From an uncultured Bacilli bacterium (lineage in GTDB: Bacteria; Bacillota_I; Bacilli_A; RF39; UBA660), in the NCBI GenBank assembly GCA_947624705.1, contig CANQLL010000001.1, positions 1 through 60,216 of the forward strand: 60,216 bases of DNA, written 5' to 3'. Positions 707 to 51,795 of this stretch are shown here, piece after piece (the first letter of the stretch is position 1; each line of letters opens with the position of its first letter). The position numbers were made by a program, and so were the translations under genes. The notes under the pieces were generated by a model that was not told where the DNA came from, did no database searches, and saw only the letters and a program-made list of their open reading frames with translations.

Positions 707-3700
707 ATGAAAAATTTTAAAGAGTTAGACAAAAGAAAAGTAAGTGAAGTAGAAGAATCGATTTCTACTTCTTGGCAAAGCGTTAATGTTATGCACGATA
801 AACAAGTAAACTTGCGAAGTAAAGATAAAACCTTTGTCTTTTATGATGGGCCAGCTTTTGCCAATGGTTTTCCTGGTTTACATCACATGGTATCTAAAAA
901 TTTAAAAGATACAATAACTAAATATCATGTTATGAATGGCCAAAAAGTAATTCGGAAAATTGGTTGGGATACCCATGGCCTACCAATTGAAAATCATGTT
1001 GAGAAAAAATTAGGTATATCTTCTAAAAAAGAAATTGAAGCTTTAGGAGTAGCTAAATTTAATCAGGAATGTCGCAACAGTGTGCGCGAAAATGAAAGTG
1101 CTTTCACCAATTTAACTAGGAAAATGGGCCAATTTTTTGATGTTGAACATCCATATTTAACTTATAAAAATGAATATATTGAAACCGAATGGTGGATTTT
1201 AAAAGAAATGTTTAAAAAAGATATGTTCTATGAAGGAACACGCGTTGTTCCTTATTGTCCGCATTGTGGAACAGGCCTTGCCACCCATGAAGTTGCTCAA
1301 AATTATCAAACTGACACGGCCATTACGGTTTATGTCCCTTTTAAGAAAAAAGATGAAGATATTTACTTTTTAGTTTGGACCACTACCCCTTGGACTTTAT
1401 GTGCTAATGTCGCTTTATGTGTTCATCCTGATTTAGATTATGTTTTAGCCGAATCAAAAGGAACAAAATTTATCTTAGCAAAAAGTTTAGTGAATAAAGT
1501 TTTAGGGGAAGAAGCAAAAGTTTTAGATACTTTTAAAGGTAAAACTTTAGAATATCAAGAATATGAACAATTAATTGATTCTTTTGAAGTTGATAAAAAA
1601 GCGTTTTATGTAACCTGTGATGATTATGTCACAGCCGAAGACGGAACTGGTATTGTTCACATTGCGCCGGCTTTTGGTGAAGATGATGCTAATGTCGGTA
1701 AAAAATATGATTTACCATACCTAAATCCCGTTGGTAAAGACGGTTGTTATGTGGGCGGATTATGGGACAAAAAGTTTGTTCATGATGTTAATGAAGAAAT
1801 TGTTGCTTATTTAAAAGAAAATGGTAAATTATTTAAACGTCAAAAAGTATCGCATGAATACCCACATTGTTGGCGTTGTGATACTCCTTTAATTTACTAT
1901 TCAATGCCAAGTTACTATATTAAAGTTTCCCACATGCGTGATGATTTAGTAAAAGCCAATGCTAAAGTTAATTGGTATCCGGCTTATGTAGGCGAAAAAC
2001 GTTTTGCCAATTGGTTAGAAAATGCGCGGGATTGGAATGTTTCTCGGAGTCGTTACTGGGGTAGTCCAATACCTTTTTACAAATGTAGTTGTGGACATAC
2101 CCATATGATTGGTTCGATTGCCGAGTTAAAAGAAATGGCTACGACTAAAGTAAATGATGATTTAGATTTACATAAACCATATATTGATGAAATAAAAATT
2201 AAATGTCCAAAATGTGGGGGCGAAATGAAGAGAATTGCCGATGTTTTAGATTGTTGGTTTGATTCTGGTTCAATGCCTTTTGCGCAATATCATTATCCTT
2301 TTGAAAATAAAGAATTATGGGAAAGTCAATTTCCAGCTGATTTCATCTGTGAGGGTATTGATCAAACACGGGGTTGGTTCTATACTTTAATGGTTATTTC
2401 AACTTTCATTAAAGGGTGTTCACCTTTTAAAAATGTTTTAGTTAATGATTTACTTCTTGATAGTGAAGGTAAAAAAATGAGTAAATCTAGAGGCAATATT
2501 GTCGAACCATTTACAACTATTAAAGAATATGGGGCTGATACCGTAAGATTTTACCTTCCTTATGTTTCACCCGTTTGGACTCCTTTAAAATTTGATATCG
2601 CTGGTTTAAAAGAAGTTTATTCGAAATTCTTTAATCCTTTAAAAAATACTTATAGTTTCTTTTGTACTTATGCTAATATTGATAAAATCGAAACTGATGA
2701 TTGTCAAATTGCTTATGAAAAAAGAGAAGAAATTGATAAATGGTTATTATCTAAATATAATCGTTTAGTTAAAAATGTTCGGGCTTCTTTTGATGAATAT
2801 GATTTAAATAAAGTAGTACATTTCTTAGCTAACTTTGTTTCTGATGATTTATCAAATTGGTATATTAGACGTAATCGTAATCGTTTTTGGCAAAGCGAGT
2901 TTAATGATTCGAAAAAAAGTGTTTATATTACAACTTATGAAGTATTAGTGGGTTTAGCCAAACTAATCGCCCCAATTACACCATTTATATCGGAAGAATT
3001 ATATCGTAATTTAACTAATGAAGAATCAGTTCATTTAACTGATTATCCAAAAGTTAACCAAAAATTAATTAATGAGACAATTGAGACCAAAATGGATTTA
3101 GTTCGCGATTTAATTAGTATCGGTCGCCAAGCCCGGGAAGAGGCAAAAATTAAAGTGCGTCAACCATTAAGTGAAGTTATTCTTGATGGCAAGAATAAAA
3201 ATATTTTAAAAGATTTAGTGGATTTAATTAAAGAAGAATTAAATGTTAAAGAAGTTATCTTTGAAGATGATTTAGCTAAATATATGAATTTTACAATTAA
3301 ACCTAATTTTAAAACAGCTGGACCAATTTTAGGAAATCATATTAAAGATTTAGTTAATCTTTTAAATAATTACACCGAAGAACAAATAATGGAACTTAAA
3401 AATAACCAAGAACATTATTTAGAAATAGAAAAACAAAAATATCCAATTACTTTAGATATGGTTGATATCCGAATTAATTCTAAAGAAGGTTTTGATGTTG
3501 GTACGAATAATAATGATTTTATTATCTTAAATACGAATTTAACTCCAGAATTAATTGAAGAAGGTATAGCGCGAGAATTTATATCTAAAGTTCAAAATTT
3601 ACGGAAAACTAAAGATTTTGACATTGAAAATCGCATTAACATATTATTTAATGCTAGTGAAGATTTAAAACAAGCGATTTTCAATAATTTAGATTATATT

Positions 3701-3805
3701 AAAGGAGAAACTTTAGCTGTTAATTTAGACTATACAAATGAAAAACAAAATGATATTATAGACATTAATAACAACGAGGTAAGTATTACGATTAAGAAAA
3801 TTTAG
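707..3805 (+). CDS. ileS: Isoleucine--tRNA ligase, type 2 (about 1030 aa form)
   Basis: 1032-aa ORF with a class I HIGH-like segment (PGLHHMV), KMSKS, the CP1 editing region and typical IleRS blocks (WDTHGLP, GWFYTL). Preceded by an Ile T-box. Confidence 0.97.
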   Translation: MKNFKELDKRKVSEVEESISTSWQSVNVMHDKQVNLRSKDKTFVFYDGPAFANGFPGLHHMVSKNLKDTITKYHVMNGQKVIRKIGWDTHGLPIENHVEKKLGISSKKEIEALGVAKFNQECRNSVRENESAFTNLTRKMGQFFDVEHPYLTYKNEYIETEWWILKEMFKKDMFYEGTRVVPYCPHCGTGLATHEVAQNYQTDTAITVYVPFKKKDEDIYFLVWTTTPWTLCANVALCVHPDLDYVLAESKGTKFILAKSLVNKVLGEEAKVLDTFKGKTLEYQEYEQLIDSFEVDKKAFYVTCDDYVTAEDGTGIVHIAPAFGEDDANVGKKYDLPYLNPVGKDGCYVGGLWDKKFVHDVNEEIVAYLKENGKLFKRQKVSHEYPHCWRCDTPLIYYSMPSYYIKVSHMRDDLVKANAKVNWYPAYVGEKRFANWLENARDWNVSRSRYWGSPIPFYKCSCGHTHMIGSIAELKEMATTKVNDDLDLHKPYIDEIKIKCPKCGGEMKRIADVLDCWFDSGSMPFAQYHYPFENKELWESQFPADFICEGIDQTRGWFYTLMVISTFIKGCSPFKNVLVNDLLLDSEGKKMSKSRGNIVEPFTTIKEYGADTVRFYLPYVSPVWTPLKFDIAGLKEVYSKFFNPLKNTYSFFCTYANIDKIETDDCQIAYEKREEIDKWLLSKYNRLVKNVRASFDEYDLNKVVHFLANFVSDDLSNWYIRRNRNRFWQSEFNDSKKSVYITTYEVLVGLAKLIAPITPFISEELYRNLTNEESVHLTDYPKVNQKLINETIETKMDLVRDLISIGRQAREEAKIKVRQPLSEVILDGKNKNILKDLVDLIKEELNVKEVIFEDDLAKYMNFTIKPNFKTAGPILGNHIKDLVNLLNNYTEEQIMELKNNQEHYLEIEKQKYPITLDMVDIRINSKEGFDVGTNNNDFIILNTNLTPELIEEGIAREFISKVQNLRKTKDFDIENRINILFNASEDLKQAIFNNLDYIKGETLAVNLDYTNEKQNDIIDINNNEVSITIKKI

Positions 3806-6924: not shown

Positions 6925-8688
6925 GTGACACATATGAATATTAAAGATTTATACATCGAGTTTTTTAAAGAAAGAAAGCATAAACAAATTCCTAGTGCTC
7001 CCGTAATTCCGGAAAATGATCCTTCTGTTTTGTTTAACACTGCCGGAATGCAACCTTTAATTCCTTATTTAATGGGTCAACCTCATCCTTATGGTACGAG
7101 ATTAGTTGATTATCAAAAATGTATTCGGACTAATGATTTAGATTCAGTTGGTGATAAAACTCATCATACTTTTTTTGAAATGTTAGGTAATTGGTCTTTA
7201 GGAGATTACTTTAAAAAAGAAAGTTTAACTTGGAGTTTTGAATTCTTAACCCAAAAATTACATATTGATCCCAAAAGATTAGCTGTTACGGTTTTTGCTG
7301 GGAATGATAAAATTGAAGAAGATAAAGAATCAATTGCCATTTGGCAAAGTTTAGGAATTAAAGAAGAAAAAATAGCTAAAACCAAAAATGATAATTTTTG
7401 GATTGCGGGGGAAACTGGTCCATGTGGACCAGATTCCGAAATTTTCTATTTTAATAGTAAAGATGAAATCCCCGAAGTTTTTGATCCCGAAGATGAGCGT
7501 TATGTAGAAATATGGAATAATGTCTTCATGCAATATTATAAAGATGAAAATGGTAATTTTAGCGATTTACCGAAAAAAAATGTTGATACAGGAATGGGTT
7601 TAGAAAGAATAACAGCAGTTTTAGAAAATGTTGATGATAATTATAGGTCGAGTATTTGGCAAGATGTTATTAAAAAAATCGAAGAAATAACTAATTTAGA
7701 TTATCAAAATCATGAAAAAAGTATGCGTATTATTGCTGATCATCTTAGAACGGCTGTTTTTATAGCAGCTGATAATAGTGGAATTAAACCAAGTAATACT
7801 GACCAAGGTTATATTTTAAGAAGATTAATTAGAAGAGCTATACGTCATGCCAAAAAATTAAATATTGATATTAATAGTAATTGGGAAGTAGAAATAGCTT
7901 TAGTTATAATGAATAAATATGCTAAATATTATCAAGAGCTAGTAACTAATAAAGATGTTGTTTTAGAGGTTTTAACGAATGAAAAAATAAGATTTAATAA
8001 AACTTTAGAAAAAGGTTTAAGAGAGTTTGAAAAAATAACGGCTAAATTAGAAGGTAATGTTTTAAATAAAGATTTAGCTTTTAAATTATATGATACTTAT
8101 GGTTTTCCAATTGAGTTAACCCAAGAATTATCGCAAGAAAAAAATATTGAAGTTGATGTTGAAGGCTTTAAAGAAAAATTTAAAGCTCATCAAGAATTAT
8201 CTCGAGCTGGAGCTAGTCAAAAATTTAAAGGCGGCTTAGCGGGGAATAGTGAGATTGAAACCAAATATCACACTGCCACCCATTTACTAAATGCGGCGTT
8301 AAAAGTGGTAGTTGATCAAAATGTTCATCAAAAGGGGAGTAATATTACTTCCGAAAGAATGCGTTTTGACTTTTCTTGCGACCATAAGTTAACTGAAGAA
8401 GAAAAGAAACAAACTGAAGATTTAGTTAATAAATGGATTGATGAGGGACTTGATGTAACGGTGGAAGAAATGCCTAAAGAAGAAGCTTTAAAGTCTGGAG
8501 CAGAATGTATGTTTATTGAAAAATATCCCGATATCGTTACTGTTTATTCAATTGGGGATGTATCTAAAGAACTTTGCGGTGGCCCACATGTGAAAAGCAC
8601 TAAAGAAATAGGGCATTTTAAAATAAAAAAAGAAGAAGCATCTAGTGCTGGAGTAAGAAGAATAAAAGCCGTTATTCAAGATGATTAA
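6925..8688 (+). CDS. alaS: Alanine--tRNA ligase, short form (587 aa; minimal editing core, no C-Ala domain)
   Basis: AlaRS N-terminal blocks are present (DPSVLFNTAGMQP, FFEMLGNWSLGDYFK, DTGMGLERI, LYDTYGFPIEL). The editing-site zinc motifs HTATH and CGGPH are both present. About 290 aa shorter than typical bacterial AlaRS. Confidence 0.85.
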   Translation: MTHMNIKDLYIEFFKERKHKQIPSAPVIPENDPSVLFNTAGMQPLIPYLMGQPHPYGTRLVDYQKCIRTNDLDSVGDKTHHTFFEMLGNWSLGDYFKKESLTWSFEFLTQKLHIDPKRLAVTVFAGNDKIEEDKESIAIWQSLGIKEEKIAKTKNDNFWIAGETGPCGPDSEIFYFNSKDEIPEVFDPEDERYVEIWNNVFMQYYKDENGNFSDLPKKNVDTGMGLERITAVLENVDDNYRSSIWQDVIKKIEEITNLDYQNHEKSMRIIADHLRTAVFIAADNSGIKPSNTDQGYILRRLIRRAIRHAKKLNIDINSNWEVEIALVIMNKYAKYYQELVTNKDVVLEVLTNEKIRFNKTLEKGLREFEKITAKLEGNVLNKDLAFKLYDTYGFPIELTQELSQEKNIEVDVEGFKEKFKAHQELSRAGASQKFKGGLAGNSEIETKYHTATHLLNAALKVVVDQNVHQKGSNITSERMRFDFSCDHKLTEEEKKQTEDLVNKWIDEGLDVTVEEMPKEEALKSGAECMFIEKYPDIVTVYSIGDVSKELCGGPHVKSTKEIGHFKIKKEEASSAGVRRIKAVIQDD

Positions 8689-8758: not shown

Positions 8759-9432
8759 TTATTTCCGATTCAAATCAATCCCATCAATGCTAGTATCATA
8801 AATCCATTGTTTTAAATCTAAATTATCTCCTGTTTCATAAAATTTAGTTAATTTTTCAAAGAATATTGGTTGATTTTCTTGTGAAATAGTTATTATTCCA
8901 CAACCATTGTCAATCATTATTTTATTAACAAATAACGTAGCAACTCTTTTATTGCCATCAATAAACATTTGTCTTCTCATAATCCAAAGCATTATTTCAA
9001 TAGCTATTTCCGTTTTTGTTTTTTCCGGTTGATTTAATAATTCTTTTAGTTCTTCTTTTATTTGACTTTCAATAGGAAATTGAGGTTTCCAAAATGTTCC
9101 CCAATATTTACAGGTGTACTTCTTAATTTTCCTAAATCTTGATCTAAAACTAATTTATCACAAGTTAATTTATGTAAATGGCTTAAAGCTTTAAAATCAT
9201 AATTTATATCATTGTTTTCCAGTATAAATTCCCAAGAATATTTTAAATTATTAATAGCAATGATGTTATTAACAATAAGTCCATTAACAACACCACCATC
9301 ATATATTACTTGAGTTTCTTGATATGTAACGTCAATACCATCTAAATTAGCACTTTTCCAAATATAATCTACAATATTTCTTTTTGCTACAAATATATTT
9401 TATTCTCTTGTTAAATTAAATTTATTTTTCCT
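8759..9432 (-). pseudogene. Fic/Doc family protein gene, disrupted
   Basis: The C-terminal ORF 8759..8992 carries a degenerate Fic/Doc core (FIDGNKRVATL). Hand translation upstream gives Fic-like sequence (AKRNIVDYIWKSANLDGIDVTYQETQVIYDGG...QDLGKLRSTPVNIG). It is interrupted by an in-frame TAA near 9390 and a frameshift at the C/G run near 9098-9101. Confidence 0.7.
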
Positions 9433-9749
9433 AAAAATTTTCTCCTACCATTTAATGTAAATAAAATCCAAAGTGGTTATTAGCTTTACAGGTAAAGTTT
9501 TTAGGATTTAAAACTAATTTATTTTCTAACTTATATTAGCACAGGAATGAATTCTATGCAATTAATTGGGCAGCTTTATTATAACTTTAAAAAACGTAAA
9601 ATCAAAAATTAAATTCTCAATTTAAGAAAAATATAAATTTATCCTAAAAATGAATTTTAGCCTAAAATTTGAAAACAAAAAACGTTTTTCTGGTTAGCAA
9701 AAAAAGCTTTTTAGCACGATTTTTGAAGCTAAAATCCATTTTTAGCAAT

Positions 9750-9778
9750 TTGCTATTCATTTTTAAATATGGTAATTT
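9750..9778 (+). promoter_or_regulatory. Extended -10 promoter of small-peptide module 1
   Basis: TTGCTA (9750-9755), 17-nt spacer ending in TG-n, TAATTT (9773-9778). The inferred start is at GGATGCA (9786). Confidence 0.45.
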
Positions 9779-9844
9779 TTGAGACGGATGCATTGAAGCA
9801 CCCGGACTAGTGTTTTCCTTAATTTTTAAGGAGGGCTGATAATT

Positions 9845-9916
9845 ATGCGAGAAAAATTTTTTTATCAAGTAATTATTGTGCTACTTTTGCTAGCACTAAT
9901 ACTACTTACTATTTAG
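9845..9916 (+). CDS. 23-aa hydrophobic peptide MREKFFYQVIIVLLLLALILLTI (candidate type I toxin)
   Basis: ATG 9845 to TAG 9914-9916, with AAGGAGG at 9828-9834. The SD lies inside a perfect 7-bp hairpin, TCCTTAA (9816-9822) with TTAAGGA (9826-9832). Below the ORF-track size cut-off, and paralogous to the peptide at 19978..20055. Confidence 0.5.
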   Translation: MREKFFYQVIIVLLLLALILLTI

Positions 9917-9991
9917 TAGAAGCTAGACATCTTAGATTTTTCAACTAAACAACTTAGATTTAACATAATATTGGTTTGGTTGATACATTTT

Positions 9992-10083
9992 AAAATAAAT
10001 TAAAAGAGCACCGAATGCCACAGGGGGTCATACGGTGCTTTCCCAAGAAGGAAAGCACTAGGCCTTAAAGGCTTTGTGTATCC
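9992..10083 (-). ncRNA. Candidate antisense sRNA of module 1 (about 90 nt)
   Basis: TTGACT (10119-10114), 18-nt spacer, TAAAAT (10095-10090). The start is near GGATACA (10083). Two hairpins compete for AGCAC: 10035-10043/10050-10058 and 10006-10012/10033-10039. The distal one is followed by CTTTTAATTTATTTT on the minus strand. Confidence 0.4.
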
Positions 10084-10191
10084 ATTTCCATTTTAATATA
10101 TATTTTTATTTAAAGTCAATAAAAATAATACTCAAAAATTTTTTATTTGGAAATATAGACTAAAAACATAATCATTATAATTTTAAATATT

Positions 10192-19892: not shown

Positions 19893-19984
19893 GGATACAT
19901 TTGATTGGGTGAATCAGATGTTATCCCTTAATTGGGTTTCATCTGAAATCAACGGTTGTTGAAATCAGATGTTTTTGCTATTTT
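19893..19984 (+). ncRNA. Candidate antisense sRNA of module 2 (about 90 nt)
   Basis: -10-like TAAAAT (19882-19887), start near GGATACA (19893). TCAGATG (19914-19920), CATCTGA (19940-19946) and TCAGATG (19965-19971) can form alternative pairings. The terminator hairpin 19940-19953/19958-19971 plus T-tract overlaps the stop codon of the peptide ORF on the other strand. Confidence 0.45.
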
Positions 19985-20055
19985 AGAAGTAAAATAATTA
20001 CTACTAAGAATAGGAGTAATATTATAATAAATTGAGAAAATTCTCTCTTTGTCAT
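19978..20055 (-). CDS. 25-aa hydrophobic peptide MTKREFSQFIIILLLFLVVIILLLK (candidate type I toxin)
   Basis: Internal ATG at 20055 of the 73-aa track ORF, preceded by AAGGTGGTGG (20070-20061). An ungapped alignment to the 9845..9916 peptide gives identities at M1, F6, Q8, I10, I11 and L13-15. Confidence 0.5.
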   Translation of the reverse strand: MTKREFSQFIIILLLFLVVIILLLK

Positions 20056-28240: not shown

Positions 28241-28618
28241 TTACATTTTAATAGAATGTTCTAGAGTCTTTTGATAAAGAATTTCATATTCACGCGTCTC
28301 AATTGCTTCATTACTTATGGCATTAAGAGTTGCTAAAGCAAATACTGCATATATTGCTAAGAAAAATATTTCCCCGCTACTAGGAACATTATTGAAATTA
28401 ATTTTACCAATATCATAAATACTGCCCAAAAATAATGCATGGACTAACAACCAACAAGATGTATGGGCATTATTTAAAGAAATATGATTTTTTAAAATTT
28501 CTAAATTTTCTTTTAGTCCCTCAATATCATTATTTTTAATTTGGACTTCAATCATAGTTTTCCAAGCCTTAATAGTATTATATTCGTTTATTCGTTTATC
28601 TTCCATATTTTTAAACAT
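28241..28618 (-). CDS. Hypothetical membrane protein (125 aa), intact copy of a duplicated gene
   Basis: ORF with a helical N-terminal part and two hydrophobic segments. Carries two units of the AAACGAAT repeat near codons 8-13. Confidence 0.55.
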   Translation of the reverse strand: MFKNMEDKRINEYNTIKAWKTMIEVQIKNNDIEGLKENLEILKNHISLNNAHTSCWLLVHALFLGSIYDIGKINFNNVPSSGEIFFLAIYAVFALATLNAISNEAIETREYEILYQKTLEHSIKM

Positions 28619-28751
28619 ATTGAATTCCTCTTTCTAATAAATATTATCTTAAAATAAAATAAAAAATAAATCAACAAAAAAACTGCGCTTAAGCAGCTTT
28701 TTTTATTTCACTCAGTTATATGAATAAAAATTAATCATAAAAGATTAATTT

Positions 28752-29121
28752 TTACATTTTAATAGAACGTTCAAGAGTCTTTTGATAAAGAATTTCATAT
28801 TCACGCGTCTCAATTGCTTCATTACTTATGGCATTAAGAGTTGCTAAAGCAAATACTGCATATATTGCTAAGAAAAATATTTCCCCGCTACTAGGAACAT
28901 TATTGAAATTAATTTTACCAATATCATAAATACTGCCCAAAAATAATGCATGGACTAACAACCAACAAGATGTATGGGCATTATTTAAAGAAATATGATT
29001 TTTTAAAATTTCTAAATTTTCTTTTAGTCCCTCAATATCATTATTTTTAATTTGGACTTCAATCATAGTTTTCCAAGCCTTAATAGTATTATATTCGTTT
29101 ATCTTCCATATTTTTAAACAT
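28752..29121 (-). pseudogene. Second copy of the 125-aa protein gene, N-terminally frameshifted (104-aa ORF 28752..29066 remains)
   Basis: Same sequence as 28241..28618 but with only one AAACGAAT unit. From the original ATG (29121) it reads MFKNMEDKRI then a stop. The track ORF restarts at an internal Met. Confidence 0.6.
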
Positions 29122-29185
29122 ATTGAATTCCTCTTTCTAATAAATATTATCTTAAAATAAAAAATAATTCAATAAAAAACTGCAA

Positions 29186-50292: not shown

Positions 50293-50613
50293 ATGATAAT
50301 AAATATTGCTCAAGATTATACTAGTAATATAGGAGAAGGAAGATATACTGGTTTTGACTTCTTAGAAAGAATTCTACTTCCTAATTTAACTTTTGCTTTA
50401 GCTAATAATGAAAAATTAATTATTAATTTAGATAATCTTCAAAATTATTCAATAAATTTTTTTCAAGAATCTTTTGGTAATTTAACTTCTTATTTTACTA
50501 AAGAAGAAATATTTGCGACGCTTGAATTTGTTTTACATGATGATATTTTAGTTGTAAATATTATTAAAGAACTTATTACTAATAAAAAAGAAAGAATTTT
50601 AACTAGAAATTAA
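50293..50613 (+). CDS. STAS-like DUF4325 family protein
   Basis: 106 aa. The pattern of an N-terminal segment followed by LIINLDNLQNYSINFFQESFGNL resembles the DUF4325 STAS-like fold. Weak call. Confidence 0.4.
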   Translation: MIINIAQDYTSNIGEGRYTGFDFLERILLPNLTFALANNEKLIINLDNLQNYSINFFQESFGNLTSYFTKEEIFATLEFVLHDDILVVNIIKELITNKKERILTRN

Positions 50614-51013
50614 TTCTTTCTTTTAATTTTTGTAAACAAAAATTATTTATTTTATTATTGTTAAATGGTTCAGTATTATTTTTCATAATAGCTAATTTAT
50701 AATTATTAGAATCAATAAATACAGTATAAATAATATTATTTATAATATAAAAACAATTATTATCTTCTTTTAACTGATAATTAATTTTAAAAATTGTGGT
50801 TTGATTATCTAAAACTCCCGATATATAAGACTTATTTGAAGTAGAAATAGTTATTCTAGCTTTAAATTTATAAACAGGAATATCCATTATAGTGTGATTT
50901 TCTTATTGATAAATTGAACCAATAATTTCTTTATTACTTACAATTAAATGATTATCCATAATATTAGCATTAATATTAAATTTAGTTAAAATATAATTAT
51001 ATAAATCTAACAT
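50603..51013 (-). pseudogene. Hypothetical gene interrupted by one in-frame TAA (94-aa ORF 50603..50887 plus 36-codon N-terminal piece)
   Basis: ATG at 51013 with a GAGGA SD reads MLDLYNYILTKFNINANIMDNHLIVSNKEIIGSIYQ. A TAA follows at 50905-50903, and the same frame then continues ENHTIMDIPVYKF into the track ORF. Confidence 0.5.
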
Positions 51014-51252
51014 AAATATTCCTCATTTCTTGAGGAATATTCTAACACAAATTTAAAATTATTAATAGAAAAAATTGTTTCTTGGCTATGTATCTAAAAA
51101 CTATCTAAATCTTGAAGTGAAATTGATAATATGAGTCATGCTTAATTTTTAAGGATAATATTTATGTAAATTTATTTGTTTTTCGTCAAGCATTGCTCTC
51201 TAAAAGATTTGTAAAAAATATTTTAAAATTATTAAAAATTTTTATAAAATCA

Positions 51253-51281
51253 TTGTATAAAGAACAAATGTTTGACATAAT
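51253..51281 (+). promoter_or_regulatory. Extended -10 promoter of small-peptide module 3
   Basis: TTGTAT (51253-51258), 17-nt spacer, TGACATAAT (51273-51281). Inferred start at GGAATGCC (51289). Confidence 0.45.
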
Positions 51282-51342
51282 TGTTTTAGGAATGCCTAGT
51301 TAGTCTGGGTACTATTCTCCTTTTCTTTTTAAAGTGGAAGTT

Positions 51343-51441
51343 ATGAAAAAAACAGAGAAATATCTTTGTACTATCATAATACTCCTTAATCTTAATATTG
51401 TGATTTTAATCTTACTTATAAAAATAGTACCAACTGGATAG
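51343..51441 (+). CDS. 32-aa hydrophobic peptide MKKTEKYLCTIIILLNLNIVILILLIKIVPTG (candidate type I toxin)
   Basis: ATG 51343 to TAG 51439-51441, with a weak GGAAG SD. Charged N-terminus followed by a single TM-like stretch. Same module architecture as the loci at 9.8 and 20.0 kb. Confidence 0.4.
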   Translation: MKKTEKYLCTIIILLNLNIVILILLIKIVPTG

Positions 51442-51497
51442 GTCGGTACTAATCTAAGATTTGGAATAGTACCTAACTCAGCAAAATTAGGTATTCC
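51418..51497 (-). ncRNA. Candidate antisense sRNA of module 3 (about 80 nt)
   Basis: Minus-strand TAAAAT (51509-51504), start near GGAATACC (51497). Hairpin 51470-51476/51487-51493, then hairpin 51426-51431/51445-51450 followed by ATTTTTAT on the minus strand. It overlaps the peptide stop codon. The promoter block is 30/32 identical to that of the module 2 sRNA. Confidence 0.45.
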
Positions 51498-51541
51498 TTT
51501 TTTATTTTATGCAAATTTCTTTGACATATTAATCATAACAT

Positions 51542-51597
51542 AAAGACGACTTTTTTGACAAGTCGTCTTTTGCTATACTCGAAAGTTCGAGTTTTTA
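51542..51597. terminator. Two hairpins between module 3 and tRNA-Arg
   Basis: AAAGACGACT (51542-51551) pairs with AGTCGTCTTT (51561-51570). ACTCGAA (51577-51583) pairs with TTCGAGT (51586-51592), followed by TTTTT on the plus strand. Confidence 0.5.
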
Positions 51598-51602
51598 TCA
51601 AT

Positions 51603-51679
51603 CTGGCGTCCACAGTAGGATTCGAACCTACGACCGTACGCTTAGAAGGCGTATGCTCTATCCAGCTGAGCTATGTGGA
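51603..51679 (-). tRNA. tRNA-Arg (anticodon UCU)
   Basis: The reverse complement folds as a cloverleaf. Acceptor GTCCACA/TGTGGAC, D-arm GCTC-AGCTGGATA-GAGC, anticodon stem TACGC/GCGTA with loop CTTCTAA, T-arm GTAGG-TTCGAAT-CCTAC, and an encoded CCA. Confidence 0.93.
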
Positions 51680-51795
51680 CGTTTTTGCATTTGCAAATTG
51701 ATTATATCTTAATTTACTAAGATTTTCAATAACAATTTGCAATCTTTTTTAGGATTGTCTTAAAATTTAATTTTATACGTAAAAAAACTATCTTT

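Follow-up and report, generated by a model that had tools for sequence, protein, structure and literature searches.

Comparison with known type I toxin–antitoxin systems

The catalogue of toxin–antitoxin (TA) systems of type I in T1TAdb spans 24 families from 218 species. A hallmark of type I toxin mRNAs is an inert primary transcript with an anti-Shine–Dalgarno (anti-SD) sequence and sometimes a long-distance interaction joining its 5′ end to its 3′ end (PMC6733600), and the Gram-positive layout places the antisense RNA on the 3′ side, overlapping the end of the open reading frame (ORF) (PMC8594479). Here we describe a module whose predicted architecture matches both published patterns, the inert mRNA and the Gram-positive layout. 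It lies at 51253–51570 of a 60,216-nt stretch of DNA (contig CANQLL010000001.1, GenBank assembly GCA_947624705.1; the whole stretch is hereafter called the window) from an uncultured Bacilli bacterium, and was the third of three peptide/antisense-RNA modules (modules 1 to 3) proposed by an initial annotation that was made from the letters without database searches. We take it, with a probability of roughly 0.65, to be a copy of a multi-copy chromosomal type I TA-like family of uncultured low-GC gut Bacilli, this copy being disarmed. The evidence is computational throughout, and the hosts are represented by metagenome-assembled genomes (MAGs) of uncultured organisms.

The Bacillus subtilis systems txpA/RatA, bsrG/SR4, bsrE/SR5 and yonT/SR6 resemble the module in their convergent RNAs, with a 3′-side antisense RNA over the end of the ORF (PMC8594479), in the small single-span peptide and in an SD buried in mRNA structure. 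They show no peptide or RNA sequence similarity to it, however, and the modules described here are not prophage-borne (0 phage or viral matches), add an mRNA helix of ~30 bp that joins the 5′ end to the 3′ end, combine unrelated toxin cassettes with one invariant antisense promoter/leader, and often stand at a fixed spacing behind tRNA genes. In hok/Sok and aapA/IsoA, the full-length mRNA is likewise inert via a 5′–3′ interaction and an anti-SD (PMC6733600), X/X′ repeats permit alternative, possibly metastable pairings, and chromosomal copies are often inactivated. There the antisense RNA acts on a 3′-processed mRNA, with the 5′ part or translation-initiation region as its target, whereas the one here covers the mRNA 3′ end and mimics the mRNA 5′ end; the phylum differs too, and there is no match to the Pfam family HOK_GEF.

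The Gram-positive Fst/RNAII (par) system is comparable in its convergent RNAs, common terminator region, structured toxin mRNA 5′ end and membrane peptide of ~30 aa. The par RNAs pair by 5′ direct repeats (DRa/DRb) outside the overlap, whereas here the 3′ overlap itself would pair; the mRNA's 5′ end is similar, not complementary, to the variable part of the antisense RNA, and no par-type interaction was found. The peptides also lack the Fst signature and any match to its hidden Markov model, and their charged residues are N-terminal instead of C-terminal as in Fst. A likeness to tisB/istR-1, dinQ/agrB and symE/symR is the LexA-box-like GAAC-N4-GTTT in the toxin promoter here and in ~30% of the family, but those systems are proteobacterial, LexA control here is deduced from the motif only, and the antisense RNAs of tisB/istR-1 and dinQ/agrB are divergent and non-overlapping. 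Literature on type I TA systems with tRNA, Erysipelotrichia, Mollicutes or MAGs, and on LexA in Firmicutes, yielded no description of such modules, which apparently form a new, undescribed family within the type I TA-like kind.

Layout of the module

The features of module 3 and its tRNA side, with the sites of modules 1 and 2, are as follows.

51253–51281, plus strand: toxin-mRNA promoter, with −35 TTGTAT (51253–51258), a 17-nt spacer and extended −10 TGaCATAAT (TGACATAAT, 51273–51281)
51289–51508, plus strand: predicted toxin mRNA of ~220 nt, starting with GGAATGCCTA and ending in a T-run (51498–51508)
51289–51318 with 51463–51498, plus strand: closing arms of the mRNA, the 5′ arm pairing with the 3′ arm
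51318–51342, plus strand: anti-SD (CTCC, 51318–51321) and probably crippled translation-initiation region, from alignments
51343–51441, plus strand: hydrophobic peptide ORF with ATG start, 32 aa by translation (MKKTEKYLCTIIILLNLNIVILILLIKIVPTG)
51470–51476 and 51487–51493, plus strand: mRNA terminator TACCTAA/TTAGGTA, then the T-run, read from the sequence
51416–51451, minus strand: predicted intrinsic terminator of the antisense RNA, a 10-bp stem (51451 to 51425) and U-tract overlapping the last codons and the stop
51463–51497, minus strand: hairpin A of the antisense RNA (GGAATACCTAA...TTAGGTACTATTCC), from folding and inverted repeats
51496–51545: conserved block of ~50 nt (CCTTTTTTATTTTATGCAAATTTCTTTGACATATTAATCATAACATAAAGA), found in module 2 as well and in over 100 further genomes; its minus strand holds the −10 TATGAT (51537–51532), a mini-hairpin CAAA-GAAA-TTTG (51523–51512) and an A-rich linker
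51532–51561, minus strand: predicted antisense promoter P1, TTGTCA (51561–51556), an 18-nt spacer and TGt-TATGAT (51537–51532)
51504–51532, minus strand: candidate antisense promoter P2, that of the initial annotation, TTAATA-17-TAAAAT, start near 51497
51542–51570: hairpin 2 (AAAGACGACTT/AAGTCGTCTTT), an inverted repeat and putative bidirectional terminator between tRNA and module, whose loop bears the −35 of P1
51577–51603: tRNA 3′ trailer GATTGATAAAA and hairpin 1 (ACTCGAAAGTTCGAGT), from comparison with module-free strains
51604–51680, minus strand: tRNA-Arg(TCT), sharing its strand with the antisense RNA
9845–9916, plus strand: site of module 1
19978–20055, minus strand: site of module 2

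Every feature coordinate of the initial annotation was confirmed by re-reading the sequence: the plus-strand promoter, the GGAATGCCTA start, the 32-aa ORF and the TACCTAA/TTAGGTA terminator stand where they had been placed, as do the minus-strand TAAAAT (51509–51504) and GGAATACCTA (51497–51488). A terminator scan picked up the minus-strand hairpin over the peptide stop codon independently; over the 2-kb region, scanning gave 2 sites against 0.1 expected. The alternating repeats that had been described, AGTACC at 51426 and 51468 with GGTACT at 51445, were recovered by a repeat search, and an inverted-repeat search found the complementarity of the 5′ untranslated region and the 3′ end, in which GGTACTATTC pairs with GAATAGTACC and GGAATGCCTAG... 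pairs with ...TAGGTATTCC. The 32-aa ORF has a hydrophobic core of ~20 residues. Hairpin A is the complement of the mRNA terminator and 3′ arm, and is nearly identical to the mRNA 5′ end.

A family of related modules

Relatives were gathered from a species-representative genome collection with a 25-nt probe (TATTTTATGCAANTTTCNTTGACAT) from the block common to modules 2 and 3, an antisense-side anchor that leaves toxin-only loci invisible to the sample. Within the window the probe marks only the sites of modules 2 and 3, at up to 3 mismatches, and it matches at least 118 stretches of species-representative genomes. The probe-bearing MAGs listed are labelled uncultured Bacilli, Tenericutes, Mollicutes, Erysipelotrichaceae and Candidatus Ventrenecus; a few matches carry unrelated labels (Clostridia/Clostridium, Roseburia, Muribaculaceae), and those MAGs may be mis-binned. 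The module-bearing MAGs are of gut origin (rabbit, mouse, chicken, goat and human). The probe had 0 matches in 2.9 M viral contigs, and the whole module had no blastn match in plasmid and phage collections.

Among the matches listed, 85 of the 107 complete copies carry an SD-preceded hydrophobic ORF of 24–32 aa, located 55–114 nt (mostly 64–110) upstream of the block. These ORFs form at least five subfamilies unrelated in sequence, namely the M3 type, with the 30-aa consensus MRKSEKYLCTIIILLIIVILVILIKIVPTV, the M2 type (MTKREFSQFIIILLLFLVVIILLLK), and others represented by the peptides MKKRTFIIKVLRYIAIILLLLTLLVIAIKI and MKTKTFIIKVLKLIAIILFLLIIMIVVIKK, MSKKDFLIFSLIIIILLLIVLLFVILK, and MKKKDLLISFLILIIILLIVSLMILCIKK. 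Substitutions within subfamilies fall on codon positions 1, 2 and 3 in the numbers 107, 51 and 134, sparing position 2, which sets hydrophobicity, and ORF length is fixed within subfamilies; the ORFs are therefore read as coding. All 10 unique genome copies of the M3 type, together with 7 metagenome copies, preserve ORF length and frame. The toxin gene is shortened, frameshifted or start-less with the antisense half kept in ~18 of 107 copies, in a sample anchored on that half. Tandem pairs of modules, 380–1200 bp apart and sometimes of different toxin subfamilies, were seen in several genomes (L025, L043, L073, L075 and L119).

The inverted repeats around a ~150-bp core, the many copies, the neighbouring tRNA genes and the presence/absence between strains would also suit a decayed element of the kind of a miniature inverted-repeat transposable element (MITE), in which the ~30-bp inverted repeats are terminal repeats and the ORF is incidental; the initial annotation had likewise named a decayed mobile-element end as an alternative. 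The family comparison disfavours it and we regard it as very improbable. The repeats are wholly different between subfamilies and still complementary, which fits RNA pairing and not transposase recognition, and the conserved parts are promoters outside the repeats. The ORF is under coding constraint, its frame, length, SD and hydrophobicity being conserved; no target-site duplication was seen at the loci compared, clean empty sites are lacking, and the phage and plasmid collections hold no copies.

Closure of the toxin mRNA

The 220-nt mRNA of module 3 folds with nt 1–30 paired to nt 176–209, at a minimum free energy of −61.6 kcal/mol (z −5.4; none of 200 shuffled sequences did as well), and the fold of its antisense RNA has two hairpins (z −5.2). 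The claim of a common architecture with modules 1 and 2 was borne out, the same 5′–3′ closure being seen in all three folds (z −5.4 for module 1 and −10.4 for module 2). In 80 modules of five subfamilies, the cognate duplex between the first 40 nt and the ~48 nt that precede the T-run has a mean of −34.4 kcal/mol, as against −18.8 kcal/mol for non-cognate 5′/3′ pairs from different subfamilies. An antisense hairpin and U-run stand at the toxin stop codon in 84 of 85 modules, with stem sequences specific to the subfamily; the median distance from terminator end to stop codon is 3 nt, and it is at most 25 nt in 82 of 84. In the RNAalifold consensus of 11 M3-type members, the closing helices occupy columns 1–13/217–229 and 17–30/195–208, the anti-SD (CUCC/CCUU) pairs with the GGAGG SD in 10 of the 11, and the AUG pairs with a downstream CAU.

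The initial annotation had read the three modules as structure conserved without sequence. This stands for the RNA core, on the strength of the cognate duplexes in the 80 modules and five subfamilies, and fails for modules 2 and 3, which by alignment are homologous: they have a common toxin promoter (..AACAAATGTTTGAYATAAT..GGAAT/GGATA) and share the near-invariant antisense promoter/leader block of ~55 nt downstream of the ORF. Module 1 (window 9740–10130), with a 23-aa peptide (MREKFFYQVIIVLLLLALILLTI), has the 5′–3′ lock and lacks the invariant leader block; its antisense promoter is TTGACT-18-TAAAAT and its predicted antisense RNA stops short of the ORF. Judged by these sequence features, it is a more distant relative within the family. 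The core genes alaS and fmt adjoin modules 1 and 2. An ORF at 8759–8992 beside module 1, Fic-like by eye, has no Pfam match and was set aside.

Promoters and the start of the antisense RNA

The LexA box of Firmicutes is CGAAC-N4-GTTCG. In the toxin promoter of module 3, an SOS-box-like GAACAAATGTTT, a perfect GAAC-N4-GTTT, lies in the spacer at 51262–51273 and ends 2 nt before the −10; it is among the 3 GAAC-N4-GTTY sites of the window. Sites agreeing with GAAC-N4-GTTY at 7 or more of 8 positions and ending 2–4 nt before the −10 occur in 24 of 80 modules versus a background of 0.9%, and the 'type A' promoter (ATTGTATAAAGAACAAATGTTTGATATAAT) recurs across several toxin subfamilies. The motif counts suggest LexA control of ~30% of the toxin promoters in the family. 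In different genomes, one and the same toxin subfamily is found behind the SOS-box type of toxin promoter or behind the TTGTTCGCTTGTTT type, and such promoter/toxin combinations suggest cassette shuffling. A related MAG (L090, minus strand, ~7485) has a canonical GAACAAATGTTC upstream of a gene whose N-terminal sequence looks, by eye, like a DNA-repair-type radical S-adenosylmethionine protein.

The conserved block of the family reads CCTTTTT-TATTTTATGCAAGTTTCCTTGACAT-ATTCATaATAaCATAaaaa.....TTTT..CAA and reaches ~55 nt past what the probe requires; in antisense direction it is TTGNCA-17/18-TGtTATTAT-GAATATGTCAAGGAAACTTGCATAAAATAAAAAAGG. P1 scores 10/12 with a TG, and over 107 modules its −35 TTGNNA and TG-extended −10 are conserved at 60–80% or more. 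P2, the TAAAAT promoter from which the RNA had been proposed to start at 51497, proved the weaker candidate, scoring 9/12 without a TG; the family consensus gives it a poor −35 (TGAATA), which variant leaders lack. The closing pair of the mini-hairpin CAAG-GAAA-CUUG covaries (G..C 91, A..T 11, A..C 3, G..T 1, G..A 1), and two metagenomic M3-type copies (L130 and L131) have another leader, with a hairpin AUGAAG-CAAA-CUUCAU, and retain the upstream promoter. A start near 51525 from the conserved upstream promoter P1, in place of 51497, is thus favoured, because the invariance of the P2 spacer would otherwise have no reason, because the closing pair covaries, and because variant leaders retain a hairpin and the upstream promoter. 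On these sequence grounds it is the probable start, and P1 and P2 may both fire.

In the fold of the long antisense RNA, an A-rich single strand separates the 5′ mini-hairpin from hairpin A, and the terminator follows. The A-rich strand is complementary to the U-tail of the mRNA, the sole mRNA part outside structure, and it may act as a toehold for that tail. A leaderless micro-ORF (MSRKLA) in the leader was considered and dropped; its two covarying positions are equally explained by the hairpin, and variant leaders retain the hairpin, not the ORF. A TTGACA on the forward strand of the block was weighed as a promoter pointing outward; no conserved −10 stands downstream of it.

Proposed mechanism

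In the mechanism we propose, a sigma-A promoter with the SOS-box-like operator in its spacer would yield the ~220-nt mRNA for a single-pass membrane peptide of 30–32 aa. The finished mRNA would fold shut, with ~30 nt at its start paired to ~35 nt at its end, and in intact members the upstream CUCC anti-SD would also bind the GGAGG SD, with the AUG paired too; from the closure, the anti-SD/SD pairing and the paired AUG, the primary transcript is proposed to be translationally inert. A strong conserved promoter on the opposite strand, placed where the terminator on the tRNA side has its loop and tail, would give an antisense RNA of ~110 nt made up of the 5′ mini-hairpin, the A-rich single-stranded linker, hairpin A and the terminator hairpin. 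Its predicted complementarity to the mRNA is complete over the final ~90 nt, in which the stop and the 8 sense codons before it lie; this RNA would probably nucleate at the mRNA U-tail and hairpin loops, and the long duplex would trigger decay and/or release the 5′ anti-SD to stay on the SD.

A probably disarmed copy

Relatives have AAAGTGGAAGGAGGTGAAATTATG where module 3 has AAAGTGGAAGTTATG; the 9 nt that bear the SD, GGAGGTGAA, are deleted at ~51339/51340. The SD (GGAGG or GAGGG) is kept in 18 of 20 assessable M3-type copies, i.e. in 18 of 19 when the window copy is excluded; the other SD-less copy (L013) is a clear pseudogene that has lost its start codon too, which leaves module 3 as the sole intact-ORF copy without a GGAGG SD among the 20. 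In the other subfamilies, every ORF-bearing copy (~85) has a strong GGAGG-like SD. A 6-nt insertion in codons 51388–51396, relative to the 30-aa consensus, gives LNLN and turns ..IIILLIIVIL.. into ..IIILLNLNIVIL.., placing two Asn mid-helix in a hydrophobic segment of 20 residues. The allele is 100% identical over 651 nt in two other assemblies and is therefore no assembly error. From the SD deletion and the two Asn in the membrane segment, the copy is probably attenuated; most likely its toxin gene is disarmed while the antisense half remains intact.

It is unlikely, though less so than the MITE-like element, that module 3 is instead a fully working toxin–antitoxin pair, translated from the residual GUGGA/AUG or from a GTG at 51334 and tolerating the NLN insertion. 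Its ORF, both promoters and both terminators are intact, its 5′–3′ closure is intact and even slightly strengthened by two U.G to C-G changes, and the allele is identical in three independent assemblies. Set against this are the unique loss of the GGAGG SD among the intact-ORF copies of the 20 assessable M3-type copies, the strong SD in all ~85 ORF-bearing modules of other subfamilies, the two Asn in the middle of the 20-residue hydrophobic helix, and the toxin decay, with the antisense part kept, that is common among family members.

Weighing the type I assignment

Several features of the type I class were found in silico: a small hydrophobic ORF with its own conserved promoter; a cis antisense RNA, complementary to the mRNA, with a predicted promoter and terminator of its own; and a structured toxin transcript, the SD itself being deleted in the window copy. 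Nevertheless, some observations weigh against the assignment of module 3 to a type I TA-like family as a disarmed copy. The class is assigned on architecture alone because peptides and RNAs match no known family: the peptides have no match in Pfam at E up to 10, and in NCBIfam only chance-level matches to unrelated families, far below cut-off, while at the gathering thresholds of Rfam 15 the window contains a T-box and the tRNA and no antitoxin family. Covariation within the M3 subfamily is minimal (1 compensatory pair), and its codon-position substitutions taken alone are flat (13/13/13). The invariance of the block is partly a matter of ascertainment, because the copies were anchored on the antisense-side block. 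Finally, a weak GUGGA stands 6 nt upstream of the AUG in module 3 and might still allow some translation. Permissive Rfam scanning of 51150–51620 gave chance-level hits only (E 0.15–9, unrelated families), and the exact 32-aa peptide was not found in a gene-position catalogue.

The same peptide could be a non-toxic small membrane protein, e.g. a stress-induced membrane modulator, under ordinary antisense control. An SOS-box-like operator would suit a membrane peptide induced by damage, copies are found on chromosomes and 0 in the plasmids, phages and viral contigs searched, and the core genes alaS and fmt lie beside modules 1 and 2. We consider this rather improbable, since genomes hold multiple divergent paralogues with tandem duplicates and strain-level presence/absence, since the ORF frequently decays while the antisense part is kept, the one indirect hint of toxicity, and since regulation is triple-locked by long-distance pairing, anti-SD and antisense RNA; all these traits are usual among type I toxins and uncommon among small housekeeping proteins.

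The tRNA flank and genomic context

The accessory context near tRNA-Arg and beside a nonsense-split gene, as initially annotated, was found as described. The tRNA-Arg(TCT) is the only tRNA of the window, and the gene at 51013–50603 (minus strand) is split by a single in-frame stop into 36 aa and 94 aa, with no Pfam match. Strain comparison agrees with an accessory flank: at the orthologous gerE-gerM-tRNA-Arg(TCT) locus of a strain with 97% DNA identity (L003; GerM 98%), the tRNA, trailer and hairpin 1 are present without the module, and synteny with module-free strains breaks off at 51576. The module is missing as well in more distant relatives (GerM 76%), and two species (GerM 44% and 51% identity) have a different toxin subfamily at the same tRNA. 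The segment 50293–51013 belongs to this variable tRNA-Arg flank, because it is missing from the 97%-identical strain; its ORF at 50293–50613 (plus strand), which adjoins the split gene, is weakly DUF4325/STAS-like. A tblastx comparison of the fetched loci for filled and empty tRNA-flank pairs gave mostly module-to-module matches and no usable insertion boundaries.

Across the family, 42 of 125 blocks lie near the CCA end of a tRNA, 68–158 nt away, 31 of them within 98–105 nt; these tRNAs represent 15 different anticodons, and in 42 of 42 cases the tRNA is on the antisense-RNA strand. Given this uniform co-orientation, read-through from the tRNA would only add antitoxin-sense RNA. The interval between tRNA and block holds the trailer (GATTGATAGGAA), hairpin 1 and hairpin 2; the stem of hairpin 2 covaries between loci and its loop TTGNCAAAAAG is kept. 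The trailer and hairpin 1 belong to the tRNA flank; they are also found at module-free tRNA genes. Among the loci examined (51577–51603; L011–L128 flanks), tRNA genes of many identities have a common trailer (GATTGATAGGAA) and then a hairpin ACTCGAAC..GTTCGAGT, with or without a module, and at module-free sites a T-run behind hairpin 1 resembles a tRNA terminator.

That the conserved sequence is merely trailer and terminator furniture of tRNA genes, the small ORF being a chance frame in AT-rich DNA, might be read from the trailer GATTGATA.. and hairpin 1 behind many module-free tRNA genes and from hairpin 2 being a terminator. Such an explanation is highly improbable, the least probable of those considered here, as about two-thirds of the copies, module 2 included, are away from any tRNA, and copies far from tRNA genes conserve the ORF, the SD and the paired RNA structure.

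Elsewhere in the window, 28241–29130 is a near-identical tandem duplication of ~510 bp, with a 125-aa ORF at 28241–28618 (minus strand) and a second, 5′-truncated or frameshifted copy at 28752–29066 (minus strand); both copies have the same upstream and terminator sequences and no Pfam match. An AlaRS-like gene at 6925–8688 encodes just 587 aa (catalytic core and SAD domain), and a T-box leader at 464–671 precedes a 1032-aa ORF (707–3805).

Implications

An invariant antisense leader across unrelated cassettes, together with fixed placement behind tRNA genes, is unusual. As a tentative idea, which we hold to be possible and short of probable, unrelated toxin/RNA cassettes could be plugged between an invariant SOS-box toxin promoter and the ~55-nt antisense promoter/leader (GNRA mini-hairpin, A-rich toehold), and installed preferentially at a fixed distance behind tRNA terminators, always in such co-orientation that read-through makes antitoxin. 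If this were true, it would imply a shared trans-acting factor or cassette exchange at the 3′ flanks of tRNA genes, and antitoxin supply would be coupled to tRNA transcription as a fail-safe.

The module of the window is best annotated as a probable disarmed copy rather than as an active toxin. As a type I TA-like family, these modules would add a large multi-subfamily group from uncultured gut Bacilli and "Tenericutes"-like lineages to the type I TA catalogue, one in which a hok/aapA-style 5′–3′ mRNA lock is joined with an antisense overlap at the 3′ end in the manner of Bacillus. For annotation there are handles in the invariance of the antisense leader and in the fixed spacing to tRNA genes, the 25-nt probe recovering more than 100 loci, and the same handles permit tests of how the antitoxin supply is secured.

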